64,000 nt of DNA from Microcoleus sp. (lineage in GTDB: Bacteria; Cyanobacteriota; Cyanobacteriia; Cyanobacteriales; Microcoleaceae): NCBI GenBank assembly GCA_042408215.1, contig JAYFMW010000029.1, positions 96,866 to 160,865 of the forward strand, written 5' to 3'. This document shows, one piece after another, positions 8,681 through 39,409 of the stretch. The position numbers were made by a program, and so were the translations under genes. How positions within the stretch are numbered: the stretch's first letter is position 1; each line of letters starts with the position of its first letter. The notes below the pieces were generated by a model. The model did no database searches. It saw only the letters and a list, made by a program, of their open reading frames with translations, and had not been told where the DNA came from.

Positions 8681-8729
8681 GTACCTTCTTCTTGGTAAAT
8701 CTAAAGAAACAACAAAAGTTTCTAACTAA

Positions 8730-8932: not shown

Positions 8933-8965
8933 CTTTCATAAATCGGAGTAGATCAGGAGCAAACA

Positions 8966-10123: not shown

Positions 10124-11551
10124 TTATGGGGTGTTCGCTAATTCTAATTCCTCTTCCGATTCATCCCGGACTCTGAAGTAGTAAAAGAGATTCGCAACAG
10201 CCAAATCCGAGGCTTTCTTCAAGTTGGACAATACTAAACTTTTATGACCCGCTACTTCCCCTTGCTTAATGATATAATCTTCATAATTTTTACGTTGCTG
10301 CCGATCGAGCATTAATTCCAGTTGAGTGCGAAGCGCATAAAAATGAGACTTGGGCCGCAAATTTTCATAAAATAACTGTTCGTCTGGTATTGCTAAAGCT
10401 GTTGTGGCTGATTTTTTATCCCCAATAACAGCTAAGTGGGATTCACTAAAATCAGCACTTTGTAACTGTTTTAATTCACTTGGCGGCAAAGCTTTCATCC
10501 AGTCAATCTGATTTTGCCAAATGTCTAATGCGGCTAAATCGTGATTGTGAATCCGTGTGATTTCTGGGAAGATAAAATCTAATTCGTCGTCAGAGTCGCA
10601 GCCGGCAATTACTGTTAAGCCATCTTGACGGATTTGTTGTTGAAGTTGAGAAATGCGATCGCCCGCAGCACCAAATTCATTCTGCACCTGATACGTGCCG
10701 ATAATACTTTGCTCGATCGCCCAACTGCACTCTAACCGTCGCAACTGTCCCGCCGCACAAGTTTCTGACAACAAATGCGGGTTTCTGTATGTTGCTAAAG
10801 CCTCAAACAACTTCCCCCGCACTTCAACAATCTCCGCGTTTCTGAGGTCAATACTTAACCGCAAAGCCGATCCCATTTGTTTAATTGCTCCATTAAATGT
10901 CTCGTAAGCCTCCCCTAAAACTAGGCGATGGTGGTCAAATTTTATATCTGCAACCGCTTCGGCAATTAATTTTTTAATTGCCGCGATTTCCCCTTTCACA
11001 ACTTTTTCTAAGATGATGAATCCTTTTTCTACTTTAACGTCTAGCCTCTCTACCGCTTTTTTTAGTTTCAATGTCTGGTGCAAATTCACCGCTGACAAGG
11101 CTACCCCGGCGAAAGTTCCGACACCAATGACGGCTGTTGTCGCTTGCAGCACCCCCATACTGGCTTGGACGGCTTGAAAGCCCATGTGAATTTGCTGCCT
11201 CTGCACCTCCAAATCAGCTTCGACGGCTTTAAAGCCCTTGTGCGTTTGGTGCATCTGGAAGCCGCCCAGGATAAGCTGCATGGGCAATACTAAGGGGGAG
11301 AGAGGGCCACTATTGAGGGCCACACCCATAGCATCAACCAGAAATTGGCTATTATTGACGATCGCGCCAACAGCATGAGCTACAAACTGGCTATTATTGA
11401 CGGCCGCACCCACAGCATGGGCCGCAAACTGTCCCGTCGCTGCATCTCTCACCATGCTGAGCGGCACTCCAGCGGAGTTAAACACTTGTATGTACTTACC
11501 AGCCTCTATTCCAGCCTGTATCGCTGCGGAAAATACAAAGTTCGTCATCAA
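10124..11551 (-). CDS. hypothetical protein (hydrophobic hairpin + helical/coiled-coil region)
   Basis: 475-aa ORF; three ~14-aa N-terminal repeats; Gly/Ala-rich hydrophobic segment TAVIGVGTFAGVALSAV. Confidence 0.75.
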   Translation of the reverse strand: MMTNFVFSAAIQAGIEAGKYIQVFNSAGVPLSMVRDAATGQFAAHAVGAAVNNSQFVAHAVGAIVNNSQFLVDAMGVALNSGPLSPLVLPMQLILGGFQMHQTHKGFKAVEADLEVQRQQIHMGFQAVQASMGVLQATTAVIGVGTFAGVALSAVNLHQTLKLKKAVERLDVKVEKGFIILEKVVKGEIAAIKKLIAEAVADIKFDHHRLVLGEAYETFNGAIKQMGSALRLSIDLRNAEIVEVRGKLFEALATYRNPHLLSETCAAGQLRRLECSWAIEQSIIGTYQVQNEFGAAGDRISQLQQQIRQDGLTVIAGCDSDDELDFIFPEITRIHNHDLAALDIWQNQIDWMKALPPSELKQLQSADFSESHLAVIGDKKSATTALAIPDEQLFYENLRPKSHFYALRTQLELMLDRQQRKNYEDYIIKQGEVAGHKSLVLSNLKKASDLAVANLFYYFRVRDESEEELELANTP

Positions 11552-11629
11552 TTTTTATCCAGGTAGCATTCGAGAGAATAACTCATCTATTATAGTAATG
11601 TAAACGAAAAAATATCTGTAGCGCTGCAA

Positions 11630-18887: not shown

Positions 18888-21533
18888 TCAAGTCAAAATT
18901 AGACGCTCTTTAACTAAAGACAAATCGACCTTGCCAAAATTTACCACAAAAGCCACATTCAAATTTTCCAAAGATTTGATGAACCACCTAATCTCATTAT
19001 AACCTTTACCTTCATAGTGATTGAACAAAATAGAAAATCGTTTTTCCAAATCCGGTTTAACTTTGCGGGAAAGCAGTACAAGTTTAAGCATTAAACCCAT
19101 TGTTCTGCTGGGGCCGAGGTTGTACACCAAGTCGTAAAAAACGTAGTGGCTGGGATCTGTAAGATTTTCTACTACTAAAAAGTTGAACAATTGATGACAA
19201 GTCCGAACTAACAATAAATTATTTAACTTCACCGAGTCATTTTCTGGGAATGTATTTCTGATGTGCTTGTACAAGCGAGAGTTAAATAGATGCCCGCCGT
19301 ATTGTGGTTCGACCGAAGATATTAAATATTCATACAAGTTCACTTTAAACGATTGATAAGATCGAGTGTTTCTGGCATCTCTCAGGAAAAACAGAGCCGC
19401 TTCTTTATAGGTGCGATCGCCTGCTACTTTTCCGGCAAATTCCCTGACAGCTAAGTGCAGTTCCGCGTCCTTCAAAAGTGTCGGATTTGCCGCCCGCTCC
19501 ACAATTCCGATCTCTGTATTTCTCGGCTCAACTAAATAATTTAAATATTCAGATAAATCCCTTTCAAATTGCCGTCTTCTTTGAGCTTGCAGGCGTTTGA
19601 TGGTTTGTTTGTCTTCCTCAATGCTGTCCTTGCTCAGCAAAGAATGACCGTATAAATAAGGATAGCGATAAATTAATTCGCCCAAGGCACAATTCGACTC
19701 TTTTTGGTGCGGTTCAGGCTCTTTTTCTAGGGCTTTCACCAAGCGCTCTAAAGTGATAAATTCTGCACTTTTGGTAAAGAAAGTTATTTGCTCCTGCAAC
19801 CGCTTGACTATATAAAATTCCATCCCGAATCGGGGAGAATTATGCTTAAATAAAGCGATTAATTGAGCGATCGCCCATTGGTCTCGCGAGTGCAATTGCC
19901 AGCGGTTGATCGCGATGTAGCAGCAGCGGTGGAGGATATATTTAAAATCCCGATCCGAGCGCTTCACAGAGACAATACTGTACAAAGTTGCTTCAATTTC
20001 TCGATCGGGATAGCCCATACCGTCGATAAATAGCTGCCGGAATCGTTCGATCACCTGTGTTGGCGATTCTTTTTGCACGCAGTCGGCGATGTGAGCGTAC
20101 AATCTCTGCTCGTTGCTGCTAGCTGGAAGAGTGTCTAAGGACAGCAGACTGAGAATATTACTATCTGCACTGGTGTCTACAACTTTTGTGGCAACGACTT
20201 CTGGTTTTCGAGGCAAATCTCGATGGGGATACAAGAACCAATAGTGTTCTTGACTGAGTTGTTTATTCGCCGCCCAATCCAAAGCTGACTGCAAACTTTC
20301 ACCAGTTAATAACAGCGATTGATCTTCGCGATCGGAAGCCAGCCATGCTGTCAGTGCTTGTTTGTACGGAGCCAGATTTCCCAATTCCTTTTCCACCCAA
20401 AATCGATTAAAAACCGACTGATAAATTAGGTTGCCAACTATTAATTTGCCTTGATATTTAACCACCAATCCTGACATTTCCAATTCCCTTTGTTCGGGAG
20501 AGGAATCGACAGAGACTCCCCCTACTTGTCCGGGGTTTTTAGGTCTGGGCGGTGGCAAAATTTTCTGGTACAGGGCTAGCAACCGACTGGGGTCGCATTT
20601 TCCAGATAAAATGCGTCCGCGAAGAGTCGTCAAATGTTCGGGTTCGTCCCAATCTTCCCAATTTTTAATAATTCTGGTTTTCACCAGTTTTTCCACCTGC
20701 TGGGCTTCGGAATTTCTGCCTATAAAAGACCCGTATTCAAGTACCAAGTAGCAAAGCTTTTGAGTCAAAAACGGTTGACCACCCGTCCAAGCTAATATTG
20801 CTTGGATCACTTTTTGGGGGCGAAAAGCTTTGAGGGCTAATCCTTTTGCAAGCGGCAAACTTTCGTGCAGTTGAAATCGGCTTAAATTAATTGCCCTTCC
20901 AATCTCAAAAGGATTGCAGCTTTGCTCTGGCATCAATTCTGAGGGGGATGCTGCTCCCAGAACCGCAAAAGTAAGGCGTTGGTATTCTGGCTGAGTGGCT
21001 CGCTTGGAGTAACAAGTTCCGAGCCAAGCAAAGAAATCATTGACACTGAAATTTAAGCTGAGGATACTGTCAATATCGTCTAGGAAAATTACTATATTTT
21101 GCGAAACTGACTTGAGCAGAACTTTTTCGATAAATATATCCAATCGCTGTATCGGGGATAGTAATTCGCGATCGTTCCACCACTTGATGGCATCAAACCT
21201 ATTGGTGAGGAGCAAACTAGAGGCGATGCGGTACATGATTCCCGCATACCATTTTTGGGGGGAGATATCTGGGCTGCTGATGCTTCTCAAGTTAATGGTG
21301 GCAAAAACTGTACCTTCTGCTTGCAACCTTTTCGCGGTTTGCACCAGCAGGCTGGACTTTCCCATGTGCGGCGAACTCAGCACATAGCAGAAGTGTCCGG
21401 CTTTGAGAGCTTCGTAAAGTTCGTCGTCAGCGGGCCGCCTGACATAGGTGGGGGCACCAGCAGGCAGATATCCTCCGACTTGATATTGATAGGTTGAGTT
21501 TACTTCTACTGTCACCTGCTGCTGATTAATCAA
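18888..21533 (-). CDS. AAA-like (AAA_35-type) P-loop protein fused to a helical C-terminal domain
   Basis: [50 protein letters not shown] start uncertain. Confidence 0.85.
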
Positions 21534-25609: not shown

Positions 25610-26329
25610 CTAAAGACTTTCATTGAGTTGTTTCATATCCCCTTGCGGCTGCACTTGCTTGTGCAAACTAATTTTATCACCCACTTCATACCCAGTGTTA
25701 AAACCGGCTTCGCTGCTGATTTGAGAACCCGTTCTGGTTTTAACTTTAGCACCTAGGTTCTCTAAATAATCTGCGATCGCTTGTTGATTTTTCTCAAACA
25801 TCGATCGCACCACAATCCCCGGAGTCGCCGCCACATCCCCCGATCCCGGAATCCCCGACTCTTCCATCTCCTGCTTTTGTTCCAATAATCTTTGTCTCAA
25901 TCTCGTCGCGCAGCCAACCCGAAAAGCATTGAGATACGCCAATCCTCTCCCACTTCCTTTGCGGTATTTGGCCCTCCGCTCGATCGCATGACTCAAATAC
26001 TCGTAAAGGTGCGTACAAACAATCAAGTTAGTAGAAGTTCCCACCAAAAACATACTACCAGTATAACTGTTTCGCATTGCATTGCAACCGTTAGCTTCGG
26101 CAATTCCCGAAAGTAAAATCATTTTCCAAGTCACATAGCGCGGTGTAGTTTCCACTCCGCTTTCGCTAATCTCTTCCTGTTGATTCGGGCCTAAGTCGGC
26201 GAGGCTAAGATTATATTGTGCTAGCAAAAGAGAAGCTTTTTCTGCCGCCGCAGTCGATTCGTTTTCATTGGATGAAGTGGCGAGGGCTAGCAGCTTTTTG
26301 ATTTTATCGAGAATACTTGTATCTGCCAT
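25610..26329 (-). CDS. DUF2786 domain protein
   Basis: KIKKLLALATSSNENE...A..LLAQYNLS; NAFRVG. Confidence 0.85.
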   Translation of the reverse strand: MADTSILDKIKKLLALATSSNENESTAAAEKASLLLAQYNLSLADLGPNQQEEISESGVETTPRYVTWKMILLSGIAEANGCNAMRNSYTGSMFLVGTSTNLIVCTHLYEYLSHAIERRAKYRKGSGRGLAYLNAFRVGCATRLRQRLLEQKQEMEESGIPGSGDVAATPGIVVRSMFEKNQQAIADYLENLGAKVKTRTGSQISSEAGFNTGYEVGDKISLHKQVQPQGDMKQLNESL

Positions 26330-26417
26330 TGTTCGATCGGTTTTAGGGTGAGAGTACGCGGTGGTAAGGATTTGGGGATATTTCTATTTTAGTATAGCGT
26401 GGAATGTGCGATCGTAT

Positions 26418-26996
26418 TTTTAAGATAATGTCATTCAGGGAATAGGATTTTTTTGAACCGCAGAGGCCGCAGAGGGCGCAGAGAGAGAAAGAAAGTTCTG
26501 GAGGGATTGACAACGTAATTATGTCATTCTGAGTGAAGCGAAGAATCTCAAAATCTTGGAACACCATGACTATCCGTAAGTCTTATTTAAGATAATGTCA
26601 TTCAGGGAATAGGATTTTTTTGAACCGCAGAGGCCGCAGAGGGCGCAGAGAGAGAAAGAAAGTTCTGGAGGGATTGACAACGTAATTATGTCATTCTGAG
26701 TGAAGCGAAGAATCTCAAAATCTTGGAACACCATGACTATGCGTAAGTCTTATTTAAGATAATGTCATTCAGGGAATAGGATTTTTTTGAACCGCAGAGG
26801 CCGCAGAGGGCGCAGAGAGAGAAAGAAAGTTCTGGAGGGATTGACAACGTAATTATGTCATTCTGAGTGAAGCGAAGAATCTCAAAATCTTGGAACACCA
26901 TGACTATGCGTAAGTCTTATTTAAGATAATGTCATTCATGGAATAAGATTTTTTTGAACCGCAGAGGGCGCAGAGGGCGCAGAGAGAGAAAGAAAG
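26418..26996. repeat. ~3.5 x 167-bp tandem repeat built from REP-like motifs
   Basis: TAAGATAATG at 26421, 26588, 26755, 26922. Confidence 0.92.
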
Positions 26997-27026
26997 AAGT
27001 TCGCAACTCATGGGCGGATTTGCATA

Positions 27027-28241
27027 TTATTCGAGGACTTCTAGGACTGATTTTGGTGACAATTTATCTTTAAACCAGATGACTTTTGCTGGGACTTCAT
27101 TTACTTTTACCCCGGCTTTTTCTAAATTCAGTCTTTCGGAAATAGCCAAAATTAAATGATCGCATTCGGACTTATGTACTTGTGCAAATTTCTTTTGTAA
27201 ATACTCCGGCCGCCAATAACCGACTATTTCTAATAAAAATACTCTTCCGTCTGGATGCACTAACCGAAAGTCGGGAATCATTACGCTTCCGGGAATTGGA
27301 ATTAATTCAACTTCTCGCTCTAGTTTCCACTCGGTTTTTGTGGAATTCCATCTTTCGGCAAATGCTGCTTCTAACATACTATCATAGGGTTTCCCTGGTG
27401 GATAGTGGCTGACTAATCCGCAATCTGAATCTAGGCTAAATTTACCTGTTTTTAATACACCACTAAAAGGGTCTTTTGTTTGCAGTGTTGAGTGCATACT
27501 CCATTTTGTGACGTGTAGCAGGGCGGGTAGCATTTTTGCTAGGGCTAACCCGTAGCGGGTGCTGGGTTTGAATAAGCTTGTCGGCCCGTCTATTGTGAGG
27601 GTGAAACCATGTTCGGCATCGCCTTCTATGTATGTCATTAGTTGAAATAGTTTCAGATAGCGAAATAGGAGTTTGTATTCTCCTGGATCGTTGCGGTGGG
27701 CGTTTAATTGGACTTGACTTGCGCGGTAAAATATGCCTTGGACTTGAGAAAGGTTGTACCGATGTAGCAATGCTTCTGGTGTGGGTGCGTCGAATTGGGT
27801 GAAGATTTTGTTTTCGTTTAAATCTGCGTATAAACCTGTGCTGATTTCGCTGGGTAAAACTTCTCTATTTAAGTTTTGGCTTAGTTCTAATGCTAGTTGT
27901 TCGAGGGTTGATTGGGTAGAATTAGTGCTGGGTACGGATTGCGCTGCGAGGGCAAATACGCGCTGTCTCAATGCAATTGGTTCTAGGGGACTGATGATTT
28001 CAAAGGTGCTGAAACCGCCTCTAAGTAAGTGAGCAAATCCGCGTTTGAGCCGATAATCGGGGCTGTCTCCTTCTAGTTCTTGCAAGCTTTTGTCTAGTTC
28101 GCCTTGGGTTTTGCCGATCGCACTTTGGAAGCAATCAATCATTTCGGTGGCTGCTTCTAGGTTTTTAGCGTCTATCTTCAGGCGTAAGGGGACGATCGAT
28201 TCCCCATTTTGGCGGTGACTTAGTAACTCGGTTGGTAGCAT
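27027..28241 (-). CDS. DUF790 family predicted nuclease (Bax1-like partner of XPB)
   Basis: YADL, RYNLSQVQ, DGPTSLF...RYG, IPDF, LEIVGYWRPEY. Confidence 0.9.
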   Translation of the reverse strand: MLPTELLSHRQNGESIVPLRLKIDAKNLEAATEMIDCFQSAIGKTQGELDKSLQELEGDSPDYRLKRGFAHLLRGGFSTFEIISPLEPIALRQRVFALAAQSVPSTNSTQSTLEQLALELSQNLNREVLPSEISTGLYADLNENKIFTQFDAPTPEALLHRYNLSQVQGIFYRASQVQLNAHRNDPGEYKLLFRYLKLFQLMTYIEGDAEHGFTLTIDGPTSLFKPSTRYGLALAKMLPALLHVTKWSMHSTLQTKDPFSGVLKTGKFSLDSDCGLVSHYPPGKPYDSMLEAAFAERWNSTKTEWKLEREVELIPIPGSVMIPDFRLVHPDGRVFLLEIVGYWRPEYLQKKFAQVHKSECDHLILAISERLNLEKAGVKVNEVPAKVIWFKDKLSPKSVLEVLE

Positions 28242-28285
28242 TTGTTATTTTTAACGAACCGCGAAGGTGCGAAGAACGCGAAGGG
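28212..28285. repeat. 74-bp direct repeat, left boundary of the PIWI-RE island
   Basis: near-identical to 36755-36828; contains the first 10 codons of DUF790. Confidence 0.85.
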
Positions 28286-28381
28286 TACGCTGATGGGTAT
28301 TTGTTTAGTTATACCGCTTTTGGAATCTTTGCTGTGGGAAGCTTTCAGGGCTAATAACCCATTTTTAACAGGAAAAACTTG

Positions 28382-28445
28382 TTGACATTTTGCTTTACAT
28401 CATTTAGTGTAAACACAGATAGTGTAAAAAGCCAGGTGCTTTACA
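28382..28445 (+). promoter_or_regulatory. sigma70-type promoter of the PIWI-RE operon with TTTACA/TGTAAA operator-like half-sites
   Basis: TTGACA(28382)-17-TAGTGT(28405); half-sites at 28394, 28408, 28423, 28440. Confidence 0.6.
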
Positions 28446-28448
28446 GTC

Positions 28449-29963
28449 ATGGACTTTGAGAATATTCGTCAGTGGCAGGGAACTGCTGAGGCGATCGCCA
28501 AGGAACTTAAACGCCAAATCGACAGGCTTGGGTTGTCTGTGGAACCGCCGGCCGTGCGAACTGTCCGGTTGTGGCGATCGAAGCAGCTTTTGTCGCAACC
28601 GAAAGGGCAAGAATTTAGATTTCGCCAGATTTTGGAGGGATTGGGTGTGGCGCTGCTGCTGAAGCGGGGCTGGACGCTGGCGGCGATCGCGCAAGTTTTA
28701 CCCTCATTCCCCGACGCAACTTTGGAGCAACAAATTATTGCCGAGGCTGATGGTCAAGACCCCTCGTGGTTGCCACAAATGCAAACAACTACATTACCAT
28801 TACCTACAGGACACGCCAGCGCTGTCGATCTCGCTGAAGATACTGTTATATTGCTGGCCCAGGGAATTCTGCGGCAATACACAAGAATTCTCAATCGAGA
28901 CATTGTTCGTCAAGATGACAAGAGTATGCCATCGGAACTTTATCGGGCTATGTGCAAGTTGGGCCGACTGTATATCGAAGCCGGAAAAAGCGATCGCGCG
29001 GCTTGCGTGCATACCGTTTTGGAACGTGCTAGATATCCCCTTGATGAGTGGGAATTAGATATTTTTTGTCACCCAGATTTTCGCTTTGGTCAAGCAATTC
29101 TCATCGATTCCGACTTGCGAGTGCCGACTTCAGATTGTGCTGAAATTGCCAACAGCAAAGGTACTTTTGGCGAAGATAATGTCATCGAACATCGCCTGTA
29201 TGAACGGTTGCGCGAGGCAACTGAACGATTGGGAATTCGCCGCCAGCACAAAGCTTATACGGCTTTGCGATCGCTATTTGGCAGTCGATCGCTCATTGGA
29301 GAACATCAACTTTTAGACTACTTACGTGACAAGGATTTAACGCCTTTGCAGGGAATGATTGTTGACACCTTTTTTGATAGCGTGCCGGATGTCTGGTTAA
29401 TTAACGGACAGGCTCATCGCTGCGCCCATTGCGGTACGCTGATGCGACCATATGCCGATAAAATACTTTTTCCCGATGGGCGATGTCCGATTCGCCAATG
29501 CCTCGGTCACAACTCCTCAACAGCAAAAGTTTCTGATAAATTAGACCCAAACCAAGACCGCTTGCTGATTGCCAAACCGCAAATTTTAACCTATTGGACT
29601 GGGCCGGCGATCGACGAATTAGCAATTTTTGATGCAGCCCTAAAAAACGGACTCGATGCCGAACTTTACCCAGAATCTGACCTGTGCGATGTCGCAATTA
29701 ACGGTCGAAATATTGGCATTGACGCGAAGTCATACACCAGTCCTGTCTCCCTTGCCTTGCGCCTCAACCGCACTGGCATCGGGGGGCTGATTCACTACCG
29801 CCGCCGCATCATTGCCGTCAGCGACCAATTAATTGAGGAGCGGCCAGATTACCTCTCTACTTTCCAGTCTGCGATCGATAAAAAAGGCAATCCTGCTACT
29901 CTCGAAATTATGTCTGTTTCACAAGTCATTGAATTGTTAAAGGCAATTAAATATGAGAATTAA
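28449..29963 (+). CDS. PIWI-RE-associated restriction-endonuclease-fold protein (MerR-like HTH + Y domain + Zn ribbon + REase)
   Basis: VRTVRLWRSKQLL..P..GWTLAAIAQ HTH; CAHC/CPIRQC; YPESDLCDV..IGIDAKSY PD-(D/E)XK; operon context. Confidence 0.82.
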   Translation: MDFENIRQWQGTAEAIAKELKRQIDRLGLSVEPPAVRTVRLWRSKQLLSQPKGQEFRFRQILEGLGVALLLKRGWTLAAIAQVLPSFPDATLEQQIIAEADGQDPSWLPQMQTTTLPLPTGHASAVDLAEDTVILLAQGILRQYTRILNRDIVRQDDKSMPSELYRAMCKLGRLYIEAGKSDRAACVHTVLERARYPLDEWELDIFCHPDFRFGQAILIDSDLRVPTSDCAEIANSKGTFGEDNVIEHRLYERLREATERLGIRRQHKAYTALRSLFGSRSLIGEHQLLDYLRDKDLTPLQGMIVDTFFDSVPDVWLINGQAHRCAHCGTLMRPYADKILFPDGRCPIRQCLGHNSSTAKVSDKLDPNQDRLLIAKPQILTYWTGPAIDELAIFDAALKNGLDAELYPESDLCDVAINGRNIGIDAKSYTSPVSLALRLNRTGIGGLIHYRRRIIAVSDQLIEERPDYLSTFQSAIDKKGNPATLEIMSVSQVIELLKAIKYEN

Positions 29964-32900
29964 ACCGGATTTCTGGACAGGCCCAGATCGCATCTGCTGG
30001 CTGTGCGTTTTGATGGCAGAATTTATTGATACTAATTCCCTAGAATATGCTCCTTTAACAATATCGGGAATGGCGAGTATTGTCAATGCACCTGCGTTGG
30101 CAAAAGCCCGCCAAGCCATTTTTAATATGCGCCTGATGTCGCTGGCTTACGTGACAGAACAGTCAGTTAAACACGCAGTTGCTATTTATAACGATCGCCA
30201 CTACCGCAACAAAACTCAGGGAACCTATAAAATCAACTTAGAAACACTTCATTTTGAACGCACAGACCCCCTAGAAGACCCTTTAATTACCCAAGCACGT
30301 CAAATTCTCAGCCAGCCTTTAGCACACCTATTTTACAGCGCCACCTTTGCCGATCCCCGCCAGCCAATGGCCGTTGCTTTAGGTGAAGAAACAACAGCCG
30401 CGAGAGTGCCAATTGGACCGATCGCAGCCCCGCTTGCGCCGCGCCGCACCCATTCCCTCGATCGCGCCCCGAAAGCAAAAATCCGCATTCCCCTTGCGGA
30501 ACTGTACGAATTAGCAGTTGAGATGGATGAACGCGAAGCAAATCATCCTGAAAAAAGACAGGGTAGCTGGGTAAAACGGTTTCAACATTTTGCACTTATG
30601 ATGCCCGAAATTGGCAAGGGTTTGCGAGAAGAAACATTCATCGAATTAGAAGGCATTAAACACTTAATTGGACTACCAGGATCGGGCAAAACAACTTTGC
30701 TCGTATTGATAGCTGTGTGGTTGGGAAAATGCGGTTATAAAGCGATGTTTGTGTTTCCCTCCATTGAAGTTGCTAGACAGTACATGGCAGAACTGGCATT
30801 TCACGAAATTAAAGTGGGAATGCTAGTCGGTCAAAGCGATGGAGCTCGCCGCCGACACGCTGACAATATTGCCGAGGCGATCGCAGCATCAGGGGGAAAT
30901 GGCGGCTTTGGTTATAGTTTAGAACAGGCAGAAACTTTTGGCTTAAATTGCGTCTTACCTGCGTTTTCAACTGCTGATACTTCGATGTGGAAATTTGGTA
31001 AAGCACCCTGCAACGAAATCTTACAAAGTGGTGGTAAAAAAGGGGAGATGAAAAAGTATCTTTGTCCGGTTTGGACGGTGTGCGGCCGCAACAAAGCTCC
31101 CCGCGATTTGCTAGATGCTGATATTTGGGTCGGCCACGTTCTTTCAATGGATACTGAAGTTCCACCTCATGCTATTCGCGATCGCCTTCGTTATTTTGAA
31201 TTGATTGCTCGGACATTTGATGTCGTAGTTTTTGACGAAGCAGATATGGTACAATCAAATTTGGATGCTTACGGTGCAGCAACTTTAAAACTTTCCGGGG
31301 CGAAAGAATCTATCCATTTAGTCATTCAAGAACAAATTCACAATCGTTTTGCTCGTGGCGAAAACTATCGATTGTTCGATCGCAATGTAGAACATTACAG
31401 CCGTGATTTATCGGAATTTGGCGATCGCAACACATCGTTAATTACTGCCGTTCAAAATATGCCCTCATCGCGAGTCGGCAAACGCTATGAGAATCAGTTG
31501 TTAACTGTTCTCAGAATTGTTAGCGATTTGTTGGATGGTTTTGAGAAAACTTCTAAACGCGATCGCCTCAACGAAGAGGAAGTCAAACAGGGATTTAGCA
31601 AAAGTCGAGCCTTGAAAGAATTCTGGGAAACAGCAGCTTACCATGCTTTTTACGATCGCACGGGCATTGAACCGCACGATCGACTCAACCTGGATCTGTG
31701 CGCTCAAAGGCTGGGGATAAGCTGCGATACCCTCAAACAGCAGTGGGAAACCCAGATTCTTTATTTTCGCCGTTATTTAGCAGAGAATCTGATCGAACGG
31801 CGCGACAATATTGTCAAACAAATTGCCGAATTGTTTTTGCCTTTGTGTTTTAAGGATGGCACTGCATCAGCCGAAGCTCAGGATACAATTACCTTACTTG
31901 TTTGTGTTACTTTTGTGATTTTAGGCTACCAGCGGATTGTACCACAAACGAGGACAATGGTAGCAGAAGGACTGATTCGGGAACCGATCGTCGCATCGAC
32001 TGCAACAGCGGAACTACGACAACTGATTCCTGAGAATATTTTGGGGTCTTTTTCTGGGGTTAAATACAGTTTTAAATCGGCACAAACTACTCTAACTCAA
32101 GCGCACAATGTAGAACTATCTTATATCATTTTTGTGGGCGCGCCTCGGATGTTAATGCACCGCTTTCACCAGTTATTTAAGGCAGATGGCGAACTGACAG
32201 GGCCGGCGGTTTTAATGACTTCAGCTACCTCATTTCTCGAAGCAAGTCCTGCTTATCACATTAACTCTGGGCCGGATTATCTGCTCAAACCGCGCCAAAC
32301 AGAACACGATCCAAAAAAGAGCATTTACCGCTTCAAATGGCTGCCCGATCCCGAATCGCGCGATGAACCTCTCCGATATAGCGGTGCTGGCGAGTTGCGC
32401 GATCGCAATTTAGAAAAAATGGTAGACTTGCTGGTACGCGGAGGAACCAAGAAATCTGAAATTTACAAATCCATCCTCAACTTTGACGTGCAAGATGGTA
32501 TTTACCGCAAAGCTGCCTTAATTGTTAACAGCTACGAACAAGCTCGGAACGTTAAGAAATTTATCAACGATTATCATCCAGAAATCGGCAAAAGAACCAA
32601 AGCAGTTGTTAATTTTCTCGATGACGGAGAGCAACCAACTGATTTCGTCACAAGGGCTCAGTGCGAGGCTTTAGGAGATGATGAAACTTGTGATATTATC
32701 ATTTTTCCAATGTTGGCGATCGGTAGAGGTGTAAATATTGTTTTCACCAAAGGCCCCAGGAAACTCGATGCAGCCATTGGTACAATTTATTTCCTCACCC
32801 GTCCCCACCCCACGACTGACGATACACAACTTTTGTACAGTCTAGCCGGAAAAGCTACCCAAGAATTTGACAGTAAAGTTTTTACTGAAGCAGAAGATTT

Positions 32901-33366
32901 GCCAGCAATTTCTAATGCTTGGAAACAGTCAAGAAAACAACTCTGGAAAACGGCGAATCGGCTGTTACGCGAACCTCTAATGGCTAGCCGTTTGGGTGAA
33001 GATTTATTCAAACCTTTTACGGCAAATCAGATGGTTAAAATTTTGCAAACAATCGGGCGCGGGATGCGAAATGGGTGTCCCGTACAAGTTTACTTTGTCG
33101 ATGCAGCTTGGGCGATTAAATCCACTAAAAATAAACCAGACTCCGGGCGGGACAGTATGCTAGTTCAGATGCGAATTATTTTAGAAGAATGCGTCAAGCA
33201 TCCCGATTCAGTGATTCGAGAAATATATCAAGAACTTTACGGTGCATTTCTCGATCCCCTGCAACGCATTGAGGGCATAGTTTACCCGCCAAGTTTACGG
33301 GATTCAGAAGGTTTGACAGAGGAAGAAGACGATTTTGATGATTTTTCACCTTTATTGGAGATGTAA
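29953..33366 (+). CDS. PIWI-RE-associated DinG-type SF2 helicase (Z domain + helicase)
   Basis: GLPGSGKTT, Cys cluster (NC..PC..CPVWTVC), VFDEAD, MTSATS, IGRGVNI, QTIGRGMR; overlaps the upstream stop by 11 nt. Confidence 0.87.
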   Translation: MRIKPDFWTGPDRICWLCVLMAEFIDTNSLEYAPLTISGMASIVNAPALAKARQAIFNMRLMSLAYVTEQSVKHAVAIYNDRHYRNKTQGTYKINLETLHFERTDPLEDPLITQARQILSQPLAHLFYSATFADPRQPMAVALGEETTAARVPIGPIAAPLAPRRTHSLDRAPKAKIRIPLAELYELAVEMDEREANHPEKRQGSWVKRFQHFALMMPEIGKGLREETFIELEGIKHLIGLPGSGKTTLLVLIAVWLGKCGYKAMFVFPSIEVARQYMAELAFHEIKVGMLVGQSDGARRRHADNIAEAIAASGGNGGFGYSLEQAETFGLNCVLPAFSTADTSMWKFGKAPCNEILQSGGKKGEMKKYLCPVWTVCGRNKAPRDLLDADIWVGHVLSMDTEVPPHAIRDRLRYFELIARTFDVVVFDEADMVQSNLDAYGAATLKLSGAKESIHLVIQEQIHNRFARGENYRLFDRNVEHYSRDLSEFGDRNTSLITAVQNMPSSRVGKRYENQLLTVLRIVSDLLDGFEKTSKRDRLNEEEVKQGFSKSRALKEFWETAAYHAFYDRTGIEPHDRLNLDLCAQRLGISCDTLKQQWETQILYFRRYLAENLIERRDNIVKQIAELFLPLCFKDGTASAEAQDTITLLVCVTFVILGYQRIVPQTRTMVAEGLIREPIVASTATAELRQLIPENILGSFSGVKYSFKSAQTTLTQAHNVELSYIIFVGAPRMLMHRFHQLFKADGELTGPAVLMTSATSFLEASPAYHINSGPDYLLKPRQTEHDPKKSIYRFKWLPDPESRDEPLRYSGAGELRDRNLEKMVDLLVRGGTKKSEIYKSILNFDVQDGIYRKAALIVNSYEQARNVKKFINDYHPEIGKRTKAVVNFLDDGEQPTDFVTRAQCEALGDDETCDIIIFPMLAIGRGVNIVFTKGPRKLDAAIGTIYFLTRPHPTTDDTQLLYSLAGKATQEFDSKVFTEAEDLPAISNAWKQSRKQLWKTANRLLREPLMASRLGEDLFKPFTANQMVKILQTIGRGMRNGCPVQVYFVDAAWAIKSTKNKPDSGRDSMLVQMRIILEECVKHPDSVIREIYQELYGAFLDPLQRIEGIVYPPSLRDSEGLTEEEDDFDDFSPLLEM

Positions 33367-33563
33367 CCATGAACGACGAAGTTTTTGACAAAATTGAATT
33401 CGATGATGATGGTGAAGGAAAGCAGTTCTGGACGCACTCAGACCCAAGAAACCGGGTTTTTTACCGAGTGTGCGGGCTGTAACGAAATATTTTCGTAAAA
33501 AACCCGGTTTCTGGCCACCCATGCGTCCAGATAAAGGAAACTACTATTATTGGAGATGCAACC
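33352..33563. repeat. duplicated RBS + first ~14 codons of PIWI-RE, separated by an inverted-repeat element (33427-33531)
   Basis: TTATTGGAGATGyAACCATGAACGACGAA at 33352 and 33547; TCTGGACGCA/TGCGTCCAGA. Confidence 0.75.
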
Positions 33564-36500
33564 ATGAACGACGAAATTTTTGACGAAATCGAATCCGATG
33601 ATGACGAAGAAACTGAAGCAACTGTATTTTCAGACACCCTTTACATTCCTCTCGGCAAGCCCAAAAGTCTGAAAGAAATTACCTTAGCTTTTACCGTGCC
33701 GGATAATATCGAACCAGTAATAGTCCAAGGTTTAACGCTAGCTTGGACTATTACTGGTTTGCATGAGCTTTCGACCATCCAAAAAGCTATTAAAAATGGT
33801 GATTCAACCATAAAAAATCTCCCTTATGCCTCGTTACGAGGTTTGTTAGAAGTAGGACTTGACAGTGCAGCACGGATTCAGTCTAATTTAGGTTTGAGTA
33901 ATTATTCGTTGAATCCCAAAAGTGTAAAAGAGCCTGAAATATTTGCTTACTTAAATTCCGAAAGTACGGAAGATATCCAGAAAGCGTTACGCCCAATTAT
34001 CAACGAGTGGATGATAAATTATCTCAAACCTTTTGCTGAAAAAGAAGATGGGCTATTGGAAGTTATCGACCGTTTGGAAGATTTACACGAGCAAAAAGAG
34101 TTACTGAAAATTACTGTGTTAAAGTCTCATGTTTTACCTTGGAAATGGAATCCAAATACAGGAACTACAAAGCATAGCAACAATTATGATTATCGCGTGT
34201 TAGTCGATTATGCAGCTCGCGCGATCGCCGGAAAAGAGATTTTTCAGGGGCTAGGAACAATGAAGCGGGTTATCTCTAGCGGCGGAAGCCTCACAACTGG
34301 AACGGCAGAATTGATTACCGATCCCATTACTCTACCCAAACACACAGGAAAATTCAGTCTGGTGGTAAGCTTAGAAGTTGTTACCTATCCTTCTTTGCAC
34401 CAGCCTTTATTGAAGATTGATGTTTCCAAACGCCGCTGGTTCAGTAAGTTAAAACCCGCACAATATAACTCAGCAAATATTACCGGTTTTGTCTTTTCTG
34501 ATGACTACAGCGATCGCACTTTTAGCTACACGGTGCTTTCTCAGTCCGAAAAACAGGAACAAAATCAACAGGACAAAAAGAAAAATTGGGTTTGGGCGAT
34601 CGATAAAGATTTTGAAGCATTGCGCGGCCAGCTCAAACTCCCGATAAAAACGCCTGATAATCAAAATATTGATGGTTCTCAAATTGCCTTGGGGAAAGCT
34701 TCAACCGAACGCTGTCAAGTAATGTTAACTTACCGCAACGGATTGCAAGAAGGAAAACACGGGATTGAGGCTGGCGTACCAGAGATTGATAAGTTAGAAG
34801 CTTTTGAAAAGATTGCCAAAATTCTTGAACCTATCGGTTTTAAAGCCTTTGATAATTACTCACCCGTAAATTTTAAGAGAGGTGAAAGCCACAAATTAGA
34901 TGATGCAGCTTCACGCATGATTAATCTGCCTACTTTGTTAGGTGCTGCTTTAGAAGTTCTCGAAAAAGACGACAGTTCTGATTTGACTCCCAAATATCTA
35001 GAAAGCTTTGAGGACGATGAGTTAAACAGCTTGCTAACTAAACACCTTGATACCAATTTAGATCATATTGCCAAAGGCAGAAAAGCCCTGCAATTGGTTT
35101 GTCAATTAAAAGAACTCAAGGCGATGATTCAGGAAAACCAGGAAGCTATACGTCGGCTATATCCTAACGAAAGACTGTTGCTTGTTGTCTTTTATGAAGA
35201 ACATTTACAAACAGATTTAAGACTGCTGCAAGCAATGATTCGCGTTCTCTGGGGTGGTGCGATCGAACTCATTGCTAATCGTTTACCAGCAAACACTCAC
35301 GGGCCCAAAGAGTCATTACCCGGTGCAAAATTGAAACCGAAAGAGCGATCGCAACACCGCATAAAAGCCTGGGAGTCGATCGTCAAAAAACTGGCTTTAC
35401 GCAAACAGCGCACTTTTTGCCTCGTCATGGCGCGGGAATGGTATCCAAACAACAAACATGACGATGGCGTAAATAAGCCCTCATCCCGTCAAGCACTGGC
35501 TACAATCGCTGGTTCTTGCGTGCAGTTTCTGCTACCGATTGAAACAACCAAGGAGAAAAATATTCTCAACCTCGCTAATTTTTCCCATCGAGTGCAAGCT
35601 GCTCTAAAAGACTTACTTTGGGCTCATTCTGGCCGCATTGATGATGTCAAAGAAAAGGTTGACAAATGGCTAAAAGATACTCCTCAAGAAGACAGACCAA
35701 AAGAAATTATTGCGATTACGATCGTCCGCAAACAGAAAGGTCGCACTCGCGGTTTTATTGACAACACATTTTTGCCAATTGCTGTGCGTCTCAAGGTGGA
35801 GACAGGCGAGTGCGAACTGTGCTGTGCTTATGAGAAAGGGAATAGTTTACAAATCAGTCCTTGGAGCAAATTTTCTGATGCGATCGCCTTCATTTCCCAA
35901 ATCTCCCCCGTGAAACTTGCTAATGACAAAAAGGGGCGTGAAACTTCGTTTCATGGAATTTGTCAAGCAGATTATTTCCAATTCTGTAGAGGAGGGAAAT
36001 CAACCATTAGTTATAATTGATTCTTCCAACTGCGTGCAACTTTGGCCTTGGCTTGCCGATTCTAAAATGAATGCAAATCAAATTAACCTCGGTCAGCAGT
36101 ACGAGCGGATGCAAGACGAGTGGAAAGGCGCGCGGATAATTCGGATTCGCCAAGACCTGGCTCCTGGAATTCTCGATAAAAAAGTACGACATTTTGCGAA
36201 AACTTTTCTGGAAGATCCGCGAACAAAAGAAGAACTAACTTCAACCTTTGAAATTCCCTCTGCCTCCAGTGCAATGAAGTTATTTCTGCTGACTCCAACT
36301 AATCAAAACAGCGAAATTAATCAAACGGGTTGTGTTGCTTACCTGTCTGTAGGACGTAAAACACTCCATCAGAAATCGCGCGGTCAAAGTTGCTATGGCG
36401 AAACCCAAATCAGTACAGTTTTCAAAATAAAAAAAGAGGATTGTTCCCTAGAAAAAGTTTCAAACAAAGCTGGATTAGAGGTTCACAAAATTGGAAATCG

Positions 36501-36744
36501 TTCGCCTTATATCGGACAATTACCAACTCCCAATCCCCTGGAAATTGTTGTGACTTTGCGACAAGAAAAAGATGATTGCGATCGCCTTGCTGCGCTGGTA
36601 GAATCTCTGCGCTATGGTTTCGGTCATTACAGCGACTGGTCGAGCTTACCTGCTCCCCTGTTCTTCGAGCGTGTCGTGCGGGATTACATCAGCGAATTTG
36701 CGATCGAGGATGAAGAGACGGAAGGGGAATCTGACTTAGAATAA
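33564..36744 (+). CDS. PIWI-RE protein (X + MID + RNase H/PIWI), split by a +1 frameshift near 35945 (ORFs 33564..36020 and 35917..36744)
   Basis: PYASL, ELIT, KRRW, DDGVNK..R..LA..GSCVQFL, LVIIDSSN..WPWL, IIRIR, PNPLEI, LRY..GHY..LPAPL; third gene of the canonical REase-helicase-PIWI-RE order. Confidence 0.83.
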
Positions 36745-36754
36745 ATGAGTTAGA

Positions 36755-36828
36755 GCGGTGGCTGAGTAATTCGGTTGGTAGCATAAATTATTTTTAAGGA
36801 ACCGCGAAGGCGCGAAGGACGCGAAGGG
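36755..36828. repeat. 74-bp direct repeat, right boundary; orphan copy of the DUF790 5' end
   Basis: minus strand encodes MLPTELLSHR and then diverges. Confidence 0.85.
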
Positions 36829-36862
36829 AAGAAAGAGAGTTTTTGGAAATCATTTAGGTTTG

Positions 36863-38404
36863 CTACCAGGGGATATCATCATCATTATTTTCTCCCCATT
36901 TGGCGGGTGATTCTGCTGCTTTTTTGGTGGTCTCTCTCTTGACTCCATAAATAGGTGTCGGTTTGACTTTTTCTAATTTCTGATATTCTGGTTCCGGGGG
37001 TTCTATTATTGTTTGCGGTTGGGGTTTCTCGACTTGCATTCCTCCTCTGCGCCGCTGGGATGTTCTTTCCTCACTGGTGTTTTCGGTGACAACTTCGTAG
37101 AGAATTGCGAGTTTATTTACATCGCTGCTTTTTCGCAAAACTCTACCCAATCTTTGGATGTATTCCCGTTCGCTGCCGGTGCCTGACAATATGATAGCAA
37201 TTCTCGCATCGGGAACGTCAACTCCTTCGTTGAGGACGTGGGAGGCGACGAGGGTTTTGTATTCGCCACTGCGAAATTTTTGGAGGATTTCGTGGCGTTC
37301 TTTGACAGGGGTTTGGTGGGTAATTGTTGGGATGAGAAATTCTTGGGAAATGCGGTAAACTGTGGCGTTGTCGGCGGTGAAAATTAGGGTGCGCTGCGGG
37401 TAATGTTTTTCTAGTATTTCGGCTAAGATTCGCAATTTGCCTTCGGTACAAAGGGCGATCGCTTTGGCTTGGTTGTGGGCTAGCATGGCTTGGCGTCCGA
37501 TCGCCGATCGCGCGCTGGCCATGATAAACTTTTTCCATCCTTCCAGGCTGGATATTTTGATGTTAGACTGTTTTAAGAAGTCGTTGCGAGTGTTGATTAA
37601 TTCGCCGTAGCGATCGCCCTCTTCTTTTGACAGTTTTACCATGATTTGCACTATTTTATGGTCGGCTAAAGCATCGCCGGCTAAGTCTTCGGGCCTTCTG
37701 CTAAACACTGTCGGGCCAATCAGGAAGTGCAAATCGCTGTGGCGTCCGTCCGTGCGATCGGGTGTTGCTGTCAATCCCAGTCGAAAAGGCGCGATCGCAT
37801 ATTCGGAAATTACTCGAAAAAAGTCCGTGGGTAAATGATGACATTCGTCAAAAACTAGCAAGCCGTATTTGTTGCCCAAGGTTTCTGCATGAATACTTGC
37901 GCTATCATAAGTTGCCACTAAAATTGGCGTTTTGTCCCGCGAACCTCCGCCCAACAATCCGATTTCGATCTTGGGGAAAGCTGCTGTTAAATTAGCATAC
38001 CACTGGTGCATTAAATCGAGAGTTGGTACTACAATTAATGTACTGCGGTTAGTGGCTTGCATGGCTAATTGTGCCAGGTAAGTTTTCCCCGAAGCCGTGG
38101 GAAGCACCACAACTCCTTGACTACCGGCTTGTCGCCACGCAGCCAGGGCTTGTTCTTGATGTGGATAAGGCTGCATTTCCACGCTGGGTACGAGTTCGAG
38201 TTGTTCGTAGGCGCGGGCTTCGTCGGTGAAGTTGATGCGATCGGCCTGGAGGCATTCTACCAGCGGGCGGTAGTGAATTGCTCGAATGCGGAATTTTTCG
38301 ACGCGATCGTCCCATGTGGCAAAATCCACCCAGTCTCTGCCTTTTGGTGGCGGATGTAGCAGGAGAGTTCCGCGATCGAATGTTAATGTAGGTGTGCGTG
38401 GCAT
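36863..38404 (-). CDS. XPB/SSL2-like DEAD/DEAH (ResIII) helicase
   Basis: LPTASGKT, FDECHH, GLTATP, EGVDVP, QRLGR. Confidence 0.92.
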   Translation of the reverse strand: MPRTPTLTFDRGTLLLHPPPKGRDWVDFATWDDRVEKFRIRAIHYRPLVECLQADRINFTDEARAYEQLELVPSVEMQPYPHQEQALAAWRQAGSQGVVVLPTASGKTYLAQLAMQATNRSTLIVVPTLDLMHQWYANLTAAFPKIEIGLLGGGSRDKTPILVATYDSASIHAETLGNKYGLLVFDECHHLPTDFFRVISEYAIAPFRLGLTATPDRTDGRHSDLHFLIGPTVFSRRPEDLAGDALADHKIVQIMVKLSKEEGDRYGELINTRNDFLKQSNIKISSLEGWKKFIMASARSAIGRQAMLAHNQAKAIALCTEGKLRILAEILEKHYPQRTLIFTADNATVYRISQEFLIPTITHQTPVKERHEILQKFRSGEYKTLVASHVLNEGVDVPDARIAIILSGTGSEREYIQRLGRVLRKSSDVNKLAILYEVVTENTSEERTSQRRRGGMQVEKPQPQTIIEPPEPEYQKLEKVKPTPIYGVKRETTKKAAESPAKWGENNDDDIPW

Positions 38405-38547
38405 TGTTTTTGAGACCTGAGTCGCTCCTGTTAAATTATAAATGACCGATCAAATATATTGACAGCAGACTCTCTTTAGGCTACTTTTAGGAGGAAATCA
38501 ATTCAACCATAATCTACTATACCTCGTTCACTTACCTTCAGAATACT

Positions 38548-39409
38548 ATGTTTGATTTTATCAAATACAAAAAAAGATTTGTAGAAGCGACTAAGGGCTG
38601 GGATAATGAAAAATGGAGCAATTTAGATATCAATCCCTTCCTAATTTCTTCCCCGATTCTGCAAAATCGCCATGTCAAGAATTGCCGCTTAGTTGAAAGT
38701 CGGGCAAAACTATTAGAATACCTGCCTAAAGATAGTGTGGTTGCTGAGGTGGGAACTCAATATGGAAACTTTGCTGAAAAAATATTTTCTATTACTCAAC
38801 CCAAAAAACTGCATATCGCAGATCATAGATAATAATTTGCACTTATTTAAAACCGAGGTAACTCAGAAACAAAAAATCCTCTTGCAAGAGGGCATAAAAA
38901 ATGGGACAATCGAGCTTCATGAAGGCGATTCATCGACAATTTTAAGTGAGTTCCCCGATGAGTATTTTGACTGGATCTATATTGATGCTGACCACGCTTA
39001 TGAAGGTGTATGCAAAGATATCGATCGAGGATATAAAAAAGTAAAATCCGACGGAATGATGGTTTTTAACGATTATACAAATTGGTCTATCTGCGAGATT
39101 ATGCCTTATGGTGTTGCAAGAGCGGTCAATGAATTTTGTATAGCTAATAACTGGGAAATCGTATTTTTGGCACTTCAGTCTCTCGGCTATCACGATATTG
39201 CAATCAAGAAAAACAGCGACGACAAGGAAGTACGAATTCAGTTTCCAGATGCTGATTCAGACTGGGATAGTACCCAAATTCAAATCCAACAGCTTCAGTT
39301 AGAGTTAGAGAAAGCTAAAAACAGGATTTATTTGATGGAAAATGACAATTTTGGCAAAATGCGATCGTACTGGCTGAAAATCAAACAATTGTTCGCCCCC
39401 ACAGTATGA
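38548..39409 (+). pseudogene. class I SAM-dependent methyltransferase (Methyltransf_24-like), frameshifted
   Basis: AEVGTQYG in ORF1, FDWIYIDADHAYE in ORF2; 7-bp imperfect duplication GCATATC/GCAGATC at 38811-38824. Confidence 0.8.

Follow-up and report, generated by a model that had tools for sequence, protein, structure and literature searches.

A Microcoleus-type cyanobacterium carries, at positions 28449-36744 (+ strand) of the 64,000-nucleotide stretch of DNA analyzed here (the window), three genes encoding, in order, a REase, a DinG-type helicase and a PIWI-RE protein, and the question raised by this locus is whether it encodes an intact, guide-directed defense system and whether that system is new. 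Dedicated Pfam and PADLOC pPIWI-RE models match every one of the three proteins, in agreement with the gene identities and the order proposed in the initial annotation, which had also suggested a search with the X, MID, RNaseH, REase, Y and Z profiles, all of which match. The REase is recognized by pPIWI_RE_REase (PF18154, 7e-16), pPIWI_RE_Y (PF18156, 6.8e-07) and PADLOC PprRE (5.2e-119), the helicase by pPIWI_RE_Z (PF18155, 9.3e-27) and PprDinG (E=0), and the PIWI-RE protein by pPIWI_RE_X (PF13111, 2.6e-39, residues 42-445), MID_pPIWI_RE (PF18157, 3.7e-22) and PprPIWI (7.9e-57). As deposited, the PIWI-RE gene is split into two frames, 33564-36020 and 35917-36744, and the RNaseH_pPIWI_RE profile (PF13032) is divided accordingly: the first frame matches its positions 1-65 (2.9e-06), the second its positions 77-287 (3.6e-37). 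The reading frame positions, the 11-nt overlap between the REase and helicase genes, and the quoted motifs were confirmed in the sequence, the translations containing the strand IIAITIVRKQ, the helicase C-tail EEEDDFDD, and the acidic N- and C-tails of PIWI-RE. The locus represents the pPIWI-RE three-gene island (PADLOC 'Ppr', also known as Argonaute type III) in complete form, as a compact cassette (Table 1).

Table 1. Positions of the cassette genes, flanking genes, repeats and other elements within the window.
Feature	Position	Strand	Description
Bax1 (DUF790) nuclease gene, left flank	27027-28241	-	PF05626, 4.7e-158
74-nt direct repeat, left copy	28212-28285	.	first 30 nt of the real Bax1 plus 44 nt upstream
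Conserved upstream cassette segment	28382-28448	+	TTGACA box; inverted repeat TTACA-N8-TGTAA (28395-28412); further TGTAA/TTACA half-sites
REase gene	28449-29963	+	504 aa; Pfam PF18154 and PF18156, PADLOC PprRE
DinG-type SF2 helicase gene	29953-33366	+	1137 aa; N-terminal Z domain, four-Cys cluster, acidic C-tail; PF18155, PprDinG
65-nt junction duplication, upstream copy (dinG stop / piwi-RE start)	33352-33416	+	from a repeat search; 88% identical to 33547-33611
MITE-like palindromic element, 110 nt	33423-33532	.	separates the two junction copies; flanked by a duplicated 4-nt AAAG
PIWI-RE gene	33564-36744	+	X, MID and RNase H/PIWI domains; Pfam and PADLOC
74-nt direct repeat, right copy	36755-36828	.	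orphan Bax1 5' fragment next to the XPB stop
XPB-type helicase gene, right flank	36863-38404	-	ResIII, XPB_DRD, Helicase_C, ERCC3_RAD25_C

The fold of the third protein was examined in P0002, an intact homologue that is 91% identical to the PIWI-RE of the window. A PDB search with the P0002 sequence returned Sen54 alone, at E 0.12 or worse. The AlphaFold model of P0002 (pLDDT 89.8, pTM 0.90), which places strand β1 of the RNase H domain at 717-725 and β4 at 818-822, matched nothing but Argonaute/PIWI proteins among its top 50 PDB hits in Foldseek (E 1e-9 to a best of 4.5e-11, probability 1.00), so that the predicted Argonaute-like fold is borne out through this close proxy. The family signature is present as well: in P0002 numbering, R863 and R865 are invariant in 68 sequences (IIRIRQD in the window) and E1009 is found in at least 90% of them (NPLEIVV in the window). 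The MID residues Y630, K641, Q657 and R679 are likewise retained in at least 90% of the 68 sequences, and they may bind the 5' end of a guide.

The first RNase H strand, IIAITIVRKQ, has a threonine where classical Argonautes have a catalytic aspartate. The placement rests on an hhalign match that sets 'GITIVR' on the classical 'GLDVSR' motif, a weak match (probability 2.9%, E 0.016), taken together with the predicted strand positions. Among 73 relatives the β1 column contains T in 30, G in 22, S in 15, A in 4, and R and N in one each, with Asp in none, in support of the missing catalytic Asp noted in the initial annotation. Judged from these residues and the model, PIWI-RE is probably a noncutting sensor.

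The opposing reading is that PIWI-RE is a guide-directed slicer with a noncanonical active site and that the helicase and REase are accessory to it. The β4 aspartate (VIIDSSN) is kept in the window and in 56 of the 73 relatives, and a precedent for cleavage exists in PsPIWI-RE of Pseudomonas stutzeri (Huang et al. 2022, PMC10991935), the sole family biochemistry found in the literature searched, which in vitro cleaves both DNA and RNA, which accepts guides of either kind, and which also has a DinG helicase and a nuclease encoded alongside it. However, PsPIWI-RE has both catalytic aspartates (D525 and D610, compared here by description and not by alignment), and mutation of either one abolished its cleavage (PMC10991935), whereas the first position here is Thr in a column lacking Asp; moreover, the 2013 analysis of the family, in the portion available, already separates active from inactive subsets (PMC3702460). 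We therefore regard a slicing role as very improbable. In the text of the PsPIWI-RE study that was available, the knockout phenotype is ciprofloxacin sensitivity and not a loss of phage or plasmid defense (PMC10991935).

The two presumptive effectors have intact motifs: GK, the DEAD box and four cysteines in the helicase, and D...DxK and the Zn-ribbon cysteines in the REase. The REase comprises an N-terminal region of ~125 amino acids, a Y domain, a Zn-ribbon and a nuclease of the PD-(D/E)xK type. All 18 cyanobacterial homologues compared keep its residues C325, C328, C346, E390, D411, D414, D425 and K427, the last four of which form the catalytic D...(D/E)xK motif. The extra HTH of the initial annotation is weakly indicated in this protein, by a MerR_1 match to the N-terminus that falls below threshold (E 0.0098, 16.4 bits against a cut-off of 21.6) and by an Atlas feature match of 0.83 to MerR clusters that serves as a lead only, and residues 1-125 are modeled at low confidence (block-mean pLDDT 37-73). 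Foldseek with the REase model gave no match at E 0.001 or better, and the REase profile gave a single PDB match at E 0.73. In the helicase, the Walker A motif, the DEAD box and the four cysteines between them follow the XPD/DinG (Rad3) Fe-S helicase pattern, with G245, K246, C333, C353, C371, C377, D428 and E429 invariant in 16 of 16 sequences, and a 27%-identical paralogue also keeps the DEAD box and the four cysteines. The general Pfam DEAD model scores the protein at 18.8 bits, below its cut-off of 26; the best PDB match by sequence is reverse gyrase, at E 0.033 or worse, and PDB sequence searches turned up no solved structure for any component of the triad. A complex prediction combining the REase (504 aa) with helicase residues 1-232 scored 0.00, a value that decides neither way.

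Taking the complete island together with a guided sensor, helicase and REase acting in defense is the explanation that we consider fairly likely for the locus as a whole; the function of the system is drawn from the published model (PMC3702460) and from Argonaute biology. By that analogy, the MID pocket of PIWI-RE would hold a short guide, and the protein would recognize invading nucleic acid complementary to the guide, perhaps in RNA-DNA hybrids or R-loops, and leave it uncut. PIWI-RE might then recruit or license the Fe-S DinG-type helicase for unwinding or translocation, and the Zn-ribbon PD-(D/E)xK REase would cut the DNA. PIWI-RE systems are counted among pAgo immune systems in the text available from a recent account (PMC11333966), and no experiments on any complete triad were found in the literature searched.

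The genomic setting bears on whether the function is immunity at all. The cassette spans about 28382-36748 and is sporadic, inserted between the XPB and Bax1 genes, in a neighborhood of housekeeping genes with no defense island, which counts against the defense reading. The location between a repair helicase and its nuclease, together with the action of DinG helicases on R-loops (PMC3702460, in the part available), is what speaks for a role in chromosome maintenance instead, in which the triad would help in replicating or repairing DNA, for instance through the resolution of R-loops or of replication-termination intermediates, and its position at XPB-Bax1 would reflect that role. We consider this unlikely, since the triad is sporadic, whereas XPB-Bax1 is near-universal (38 of 41 related genomes, the same count as for Bax1 itself). 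The Z domain occurs in only 23 of 401 cyanobacterial genomes (10 of 155 genera) and the triad in 7 of 20 genomes in the genus, the window's own included; in congeners XPB lies directly upstream of Bax1, and in 6 of 19 relatives the two genes adjoin with no cassette between them. Furthermore, 15 of 21 related triads occupy a second site, between nadA and a phosphoesterase gene, and an obligatory functional link between the triad and XPB-Bax1 was rejected on this ground. The sporadic distribution is that of defense cassettes, and defense remains our preferred reading of the triad.

Within one genus the cassette is found at two unrelated places on the chromosome, with the same sharp boundaries at both, DNA homology to the second-site triads beginning at 28382-28394. 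At the XPB/Bax1 site a 74-nt duplication, with copies 88% identical, rebuilds the 5' end of Bax1, and empty sites in congeners have a single copy of this repeat; a search for flanking direct repeats at the other insertion site found none in the 15 second-site loci, nor in L018 or L001. The cassette contains no integrase or transposase. One conceivable reading, which we regard as scarcely probable, is that the triads are self-mobile, their own guided sensor, helicase and nuclease making a break or recombination intermediate that inserts the cassette, in the manner of a homing-like selfish defense element. The same genome contains a second, divergent triad.

A further question is whether the PIWI-RE gene in the window is intact. 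The break between its two frames lies at ~35925-35945 and requires a +1 shift, the deposited sequence having a surplus base at ~35940-35944, and the resulting 818-aa truncated product is the sole such form among close relatives, with 106 of the 119 PIWI-RE homologues among the matches listed reaching at least 1000 aa. A decaying remnant, in which PIWI-RE is truly frameshifted, its start region disrupted by the MITE, and the system dead in this strain, would fit the frameshift as it stands in the deposited sequence, the unique truncated form, and the MITE, which is missing from 20 of 20 related triad loci. However, contigs derived from the reads of four of four public runs (assembled contigs, not raw reads) have one base less at this place, and that of the probable source run shows no other difference over 1101 nt at a depth of 28.5. 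Removal of the surplus base gives an uninterrupted frame of 1059 codons. Against disruption of the start, the MITE leaves intact a second, duplicated ribosome-binding site and start at 33564, the equivalent of which is used by P0002, and the REase and helicase are intact; we thus judge a dead remnant to be decidedly unlikely. The frameshift is probably an assembly error and the gene very probably intact in the organism, so that the system is not to be written off as broken over an apparent pseudogene, and the frame repair of the operon envisaged in the initial annotation is probably unnecessary. A programmed frameshift at the A5G4 run was also considered and rejected, as the shift needed is +1, the homologues are in frame, and the read-derived contigs are one base shorter.

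At the dinG/piwi-RE junction, the upstream copy of the duplication opens just a 37-codon frame in the window, and in homologues P0004 and P0013 the two copies are translated together as a single extension of the N-terminus. The MITE between the copies has 56 matches by genome search and 367 BLAST hits in the genome, 70 of them at least 90 nt; it forms a hairpin of -51.9 kcal/mol and could lower PIWI-RE expression.

The initial annotation had considered the locus a candidate novel system, a view that does not survive comparison with the literature. The 2013 description of the three-gene island (Burroughs, Iyer and Aravind, PMC3702460, as far as the available text extends) already covers members in cyanobacteria, REases fused to an HTH, and PIWI-RE versions that are catalytically dead, and the family is modeled in PADLOC. 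Our locus has that island's three proteins in the same order, with the X, MID, RNaseH, Y and Z domains. It further shares the Arg and Glu signature residues, a Zn-ribbon REase with a possibly HTH-like N-terminus, and a PIWI that is catalytically incomplete, as in part of the family (PMC3702460). The differences are at clade level only: the proteins are larger (1059 aa for PIWI-RE and 1137 aa for the helicase, where the PADLOC profiles have 718 and 930 positions), the dinG-stop/piwi-start junction is duplicated, with a MITE in this copy, and there are acidic tails. Of these tails, the PIWI-RE N-tail (9 of 73 relatives) and the helicase C-tail are clade-specific, whereas the PIWI-RE C-tail is family-wide (53 of 73). 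The locus is a further copy of a catalogued system and opens no new class; what is newly seen here is the probable assembly error, the β1 threonine, the cassette with its 74-nt repeat, the MITE and the second divergent triad.

Classical long prokaryotic and eukaryotic Argonautes, such as those of T. thermophilus and Pseudooceanicola lipolyticus, resemble the PIWI-RE protein in fold over the full length, and the MID Gln and the β1 motifs align, but identity is only ~9-10%, the N-terminal half is different, and PIWI-RE is tied to helicase and REase partners; Pfam Piwi (PF02171) has no match in the genome. The DdmDE system, composed of the Argonaute-like DdmE and the helicase-nuclease DdmD, follows the same logic of an Argonaute-like sensor with a helicase and a PD-(D/E)xK nuclease, though the latter two are fused in DdmD and are encoded by two genes here. 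In VIA-align, the REase model (residues 245-504) aligns with the DdmD C-terminal region over 180 and 170 residues with Z 5.6 and 5.2, amid many winged-helix matches and in a nonspecific range, and no sequence similarity of the REase or helicase to any PDB chain was found. Type IV CRISPR-associated DinG (CasDinG) similarly pairs a guide-directed complex with a DinG-type helicase, and PADLOC typeIV_DinG matches our helicase weakly (E 4e-4), but there is no CRISPR array or Cas protein here and the window's helicase has the island-specific Z domain.

As a well-described natural copy of the triad, the locus is useful material; congeners offer the cassette at the first site, at the second site, or absent, and the same genome offers the second triad. 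A putatively slicer-dead PIWI is here paired with a helicase and a nuclease that are intact, and the nuclease, which may bear an HTH, has a candidate operator. Over 27900-37000, promoter-like sites (14 versus 13.0 ± 4.2 expected) and terminator-like sites (5 versus 10.5 ± 3.7 expected) are not above chance, and an Rfam scan of 26000-39000 gave no matches at E 0.1 or better. The segment directly upstream of the REase gene is nonetheless a candidate promoter and operator by its motifs, and the HTH-like N-terminus of the REase may repress the operon at its TTACA-N8-TGTAA sites. The window has two occurrences of this pattern where 0.14 would be expected, and an alignment of 10 upstream regions shows the half-sites conserved in 9, with variable sequence between them.

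The three genes of the cassette, which encode a REase, a DinG-type helicase and a PIWI-RE protein, match the corresponding profiles of the pPIWI-RE family (table below), and the PIWI-RE protein is recognized in addition by the PADLOC profile PprPIWI (7.9e-57). These Pfam and PADLOC matches confirm the initial annotation, which had described a three-gene PIWI-RE system, and every detail of that observation, down to its sequence motifs and acidic tails, is borne out by the profiles and the translations. The locus genuinely belongs to a family already known, that of the pPIWI-RE three-gene island (Burroughs, Iyer and Aravind 2013). In its accessible text, that account already includes cyanobacteria, fusions of an HTH to the REase and members that lack catalytic activity, and it proposes a role in RNA-guided, R-loop-linked restriction (PMC3702460). 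A 2024 survey, in its accessible text, places PIWI-RE systems among the pAgo immune systems, as PADLOC pAgo type III (PMC11333966). In the papers searched, which included PIWI-RE and phage work since 2019, we found no experimental test of a whole PIWI-RE triad, and the present copy sits in a clade for which no experimental work was found there. The most informative additions that it offers are a likely assembly error, a putatively slicer-dead active site, precise boundaries for the cassette along with its empty and alternative sites, and a candidate operator.

Features of the PIWI-RE cassette, in window positions
Feature	Position	Strand	Properties
74-nt direct repeat, copy beside Bax1	28212-28285		copies 88% identical
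REase ORF	28449-29963	+	504 aa; Pfam pPIWI_RE_REase 7e-16, pPIWI_RE_Y 6.8e-07; PADLOC PprRE 5.2e-119
DinG-type helicase ORF	29953-33366	+	1137 aa; 11-nt overlap with REase ORF; Pfam pPIWI_RE_Z 9.3e-27; PADLOC PprDinG E=0
110-nt palindromic MITE-like element	33423-33532		4-nt AAAG target duplication at ends; hairpin -51.9 kcal/mol
PIWI-RE first-frame ORF	33564-36020	+	818 aa; Pfam pPIWI_RE_X 2.6e-39, MID_pPIWI_RE 3.7e-22, RNaseH_pPIWI_RE profile positions 1-65
PIWI-RE second-frame ORF	35917-36744	+	275 aa; +1 frame relative to first-frame ORF; RNaseH_pPIWI_RE positions 77-287 (3.6e-37)
74-nt direct repeat, other copy	36755-36828		copies 88% identical

PIWI-RE is divided between two frames in the deposited sequence, and when its own 818-aa product is set aside, 106 of 119 listed homologues reach at least 1000 aa. 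In an alignment the break falls no more than a few codons away from 35925-35945, and Logan contigs from four public sequencing runs were compared over 35400-36500. Run X1, which is near-identical to the window and may be its source, has one letter fewer at 35944 and 0 other differences at a depth of 28.5, and in run X3, an independent metagenome, the letter is absent at the same place, again with 0 other differences. Runs X4 and X5, from related strains, have one letter fewer at 35940. The surplus-base form of the window was seen in none of the four runs over this interval, and dropping one letter at either place leaves 33564-36744 open for 1059 codons. The frameshift is very likely a one-base consensus error of the deposited assembly, and the system is probably intact, with the consideration that the evidence consists of assembled contigs, which, unlike raw reads, could hide a minority variant.

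The fold was modeled on P0002, an intact homologue that is 91% identical to the PIWI-RE of the window and whose residue numbers are used here. The AlphaFold2 model has a mean pLDDT of 89.8 and a pTM of 0.90 (input alignment of 68 sequences), and each of the 50 PDB entries that Foldseek ranks highest for it is an Argonaute or PIWI protein (top E 4.5e-11, probability 1.00). The residues that give the family its name are kept, with R863 and R865 invariant and E1009 found in at least 90% of the sequences in the 68-sequence alignment. The model runs through beta1 (717-725), beta2, beta3, a helix (792-812) and beta4 (818-822). The first catalytic Asp of classical Argonautes lies close to the end of beta1, and this strand in PIWI-RE reads IIAITIVR. 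Active-site residues were aligned for 73 proteins, namely P0002 and the 72 of 150 listed representatives sized 750-1300 aa, the 78 set aside being 41 giant proteins, 10 of mid-length and 27 fragments. The first catalytic column contains 30 Thr, 22 Gly, 15 Ser, four Ala, one Arg and one Asn, with Asp in 0 of 73, and the Asp that ends beta4 is retained in 56 of 73. A profile-profile alignment with nine cyanobacterial classical Argonautes, taken from the PF02171 search of 401 genomes, sets "GITIVR" opposite their invariant "GLDVSR", in a weak match (probability 2.9%, E 0.016). PsPIWI-RE, the sole member with biochemistry, is described in the accessible text of its report as requiring both D525 and D610 for cleavage (PMC10991935). 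Because the first Asp is absent and PsPIWI-RE depends on both, the proposal made at the outset that PIWI-RE is a non-cutting sensor is the better reading of the active site, and a likely one.

The same genome contains a second complete pPIWI-RE triad on another contig (L050, G000:C28:279000-297000, at 5594-13251), with all three proteins Pfam-positive and with a REase of 450 aa, a helicase of 1178 aa and a PIWI-RE of 931 aa. Its helicase is 27% identical to that of the window, its PIWI-RE gives only short, weak BLASTP matches to the window's, the N-terminal region of its REase differs, and the triad is bordered on one side by a 421-aa ORF that matches nothing in Pfam and on the other by an LptF/LptG permease gene. 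A profile search of this genome, which has two triads, gave no PF02171 match. The Z domain of the island is present in 23 of the 401 cyanobacterial genomes sampled (10 of 155 genera), and 37 of the 401 have a classical Argonaute with a Piwi domain (PF02171). Giants of 2865-3473 aa, P0164, P0173 and P0192 among them, make up 41 of the best 150 listed representatives. In the three giants that were scanned, the N-terminus carries the full PIWI-RE module (X, MID, RNaseH), and in the roughly 2000 residues after it an AAA_22-type ATPase near residues 2430-2910 was the only match, an architecture absent from the accessible text of the 2013 family description (PMC3702460).

Judged by their motifs, the helicase and the REase both look functional. 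The helicase retains the GK of Walker A and a DEAD box with the four Cys in between; these residues show no variation across 16 of 16 cyanobacterial homologues and are also present in the 27%-identical paralogue. The REase has three Zn-ribbon Cys together with D411, D414 and D425-x-K427 in 18 of 18. The N-terminal ~125 residues of the REase are confined to the clade of the window. The extra HTH of the initial annotation is a plausible candidate at this N-terminus, which gives a sub-threshold match to MerR_1 (E 0.0098) and an Atlas lead (0.83) and is modeled with low confidence; HTH fusions to the pPIWI-RE REase were already recorded in 2013 (PMC3702460, accessible text). A 67-nt segment 5' of the REase gene (28382-28448), common to all related cassettes, has a TTGACA and conserved TTACA/TGTAA half-sites amid otherwise variable sequence and is a candidate operator. 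The acidic C-tail of PIWI-RE is family-wide, 53 of 73 proteins having a net charge of -4 or lower across their final 20 residues, the acidic N-tail is rarer (9 of 73), and the acidic C-tail of the helicase is missing from the 27%-identical paralogue.

The cassette (about 28382-36748) is flanked by two minus-strand genes, one for a Bax1/DUF790 nuclease and the other for an XPB-type helicase. In archaea, XPB and Bax1 are known to pair as helicase and nuclease, according to the accessible texts of PMC7293015 and PMC7672443. Bax1 is present in 38 of 41 related genomes, and its surroundings were compared in the loci of 19 relatives. The site is empty in six of the 19, with XPB about 85-160 nt upstream of Bax1, and in eight the distance is 680-960 nt and the gap contains other small inserts, seven of these wide gaps having a repeated piece of the 3' end of XPB or, in the case of L036, of the 5' end of Bax1. 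The REase gene adjoins Bax1 in two relatives, and neither XPB nor REase was seen beside it in three. From these comparisons the XPB|Bax1 junction (L026-L036 in relatives) appears to have received insertions repeatedly. The direct repeat that brackets the cassette comprises the first 30 nt of Bax1 and the 44 nt upstream of it, and empty sites contain a single copy. Five of 21 related triad loci are at this junction (counting the partial locus L021), 15 have nadA on one side and a metallophosphoesterase gene on the other, and one is elsewhere; flanking direct repeats were found at the XPB|Bax1 site only, in three of four such loci. DNA homology among all related triad loci begins at 28382-28394 and ends near 36740, where the PIWI-RE stop lies, and no integrase or transposase was found inside the cassette. 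The nadA-metallophosphoesterase interval of the window's own genome (C6:1054361-1057935) contains ~3.5 kb with two ORFs (393 and 374 aa) that appear TnpB/IS605-OrfB-like by eye.

The MITE-like element between dinG and piwi-RE is missing from all 20 other triad loci compared and is unique to this operon copy, and it has 367 BLAST matches across the genome, 70 of them at least 90 nt long. It splits a duplicated dinG-stop/piwi-start junction, severing the upstream piwi-RE start that some homologues use and leaving untouched the second start, which is preceded by a separate ribosome-binding site copy.

The wider neighborhood of the cassette consists of housekeeping genes. Amid these, upstream of the island, are genes for an 868-aa protein with TerB and a dynamin-family GTPase (11630-14236) and for an 881-aa AAA_35 ATPase (18888-21533). 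The interval that separates the Bax1 3' end from a DUF7168/DUF2786 gene contains a 167-bp tandem repeat (26419-26996) of 3.5 copies that are 99% matching, of which relatives appear to have one unit.
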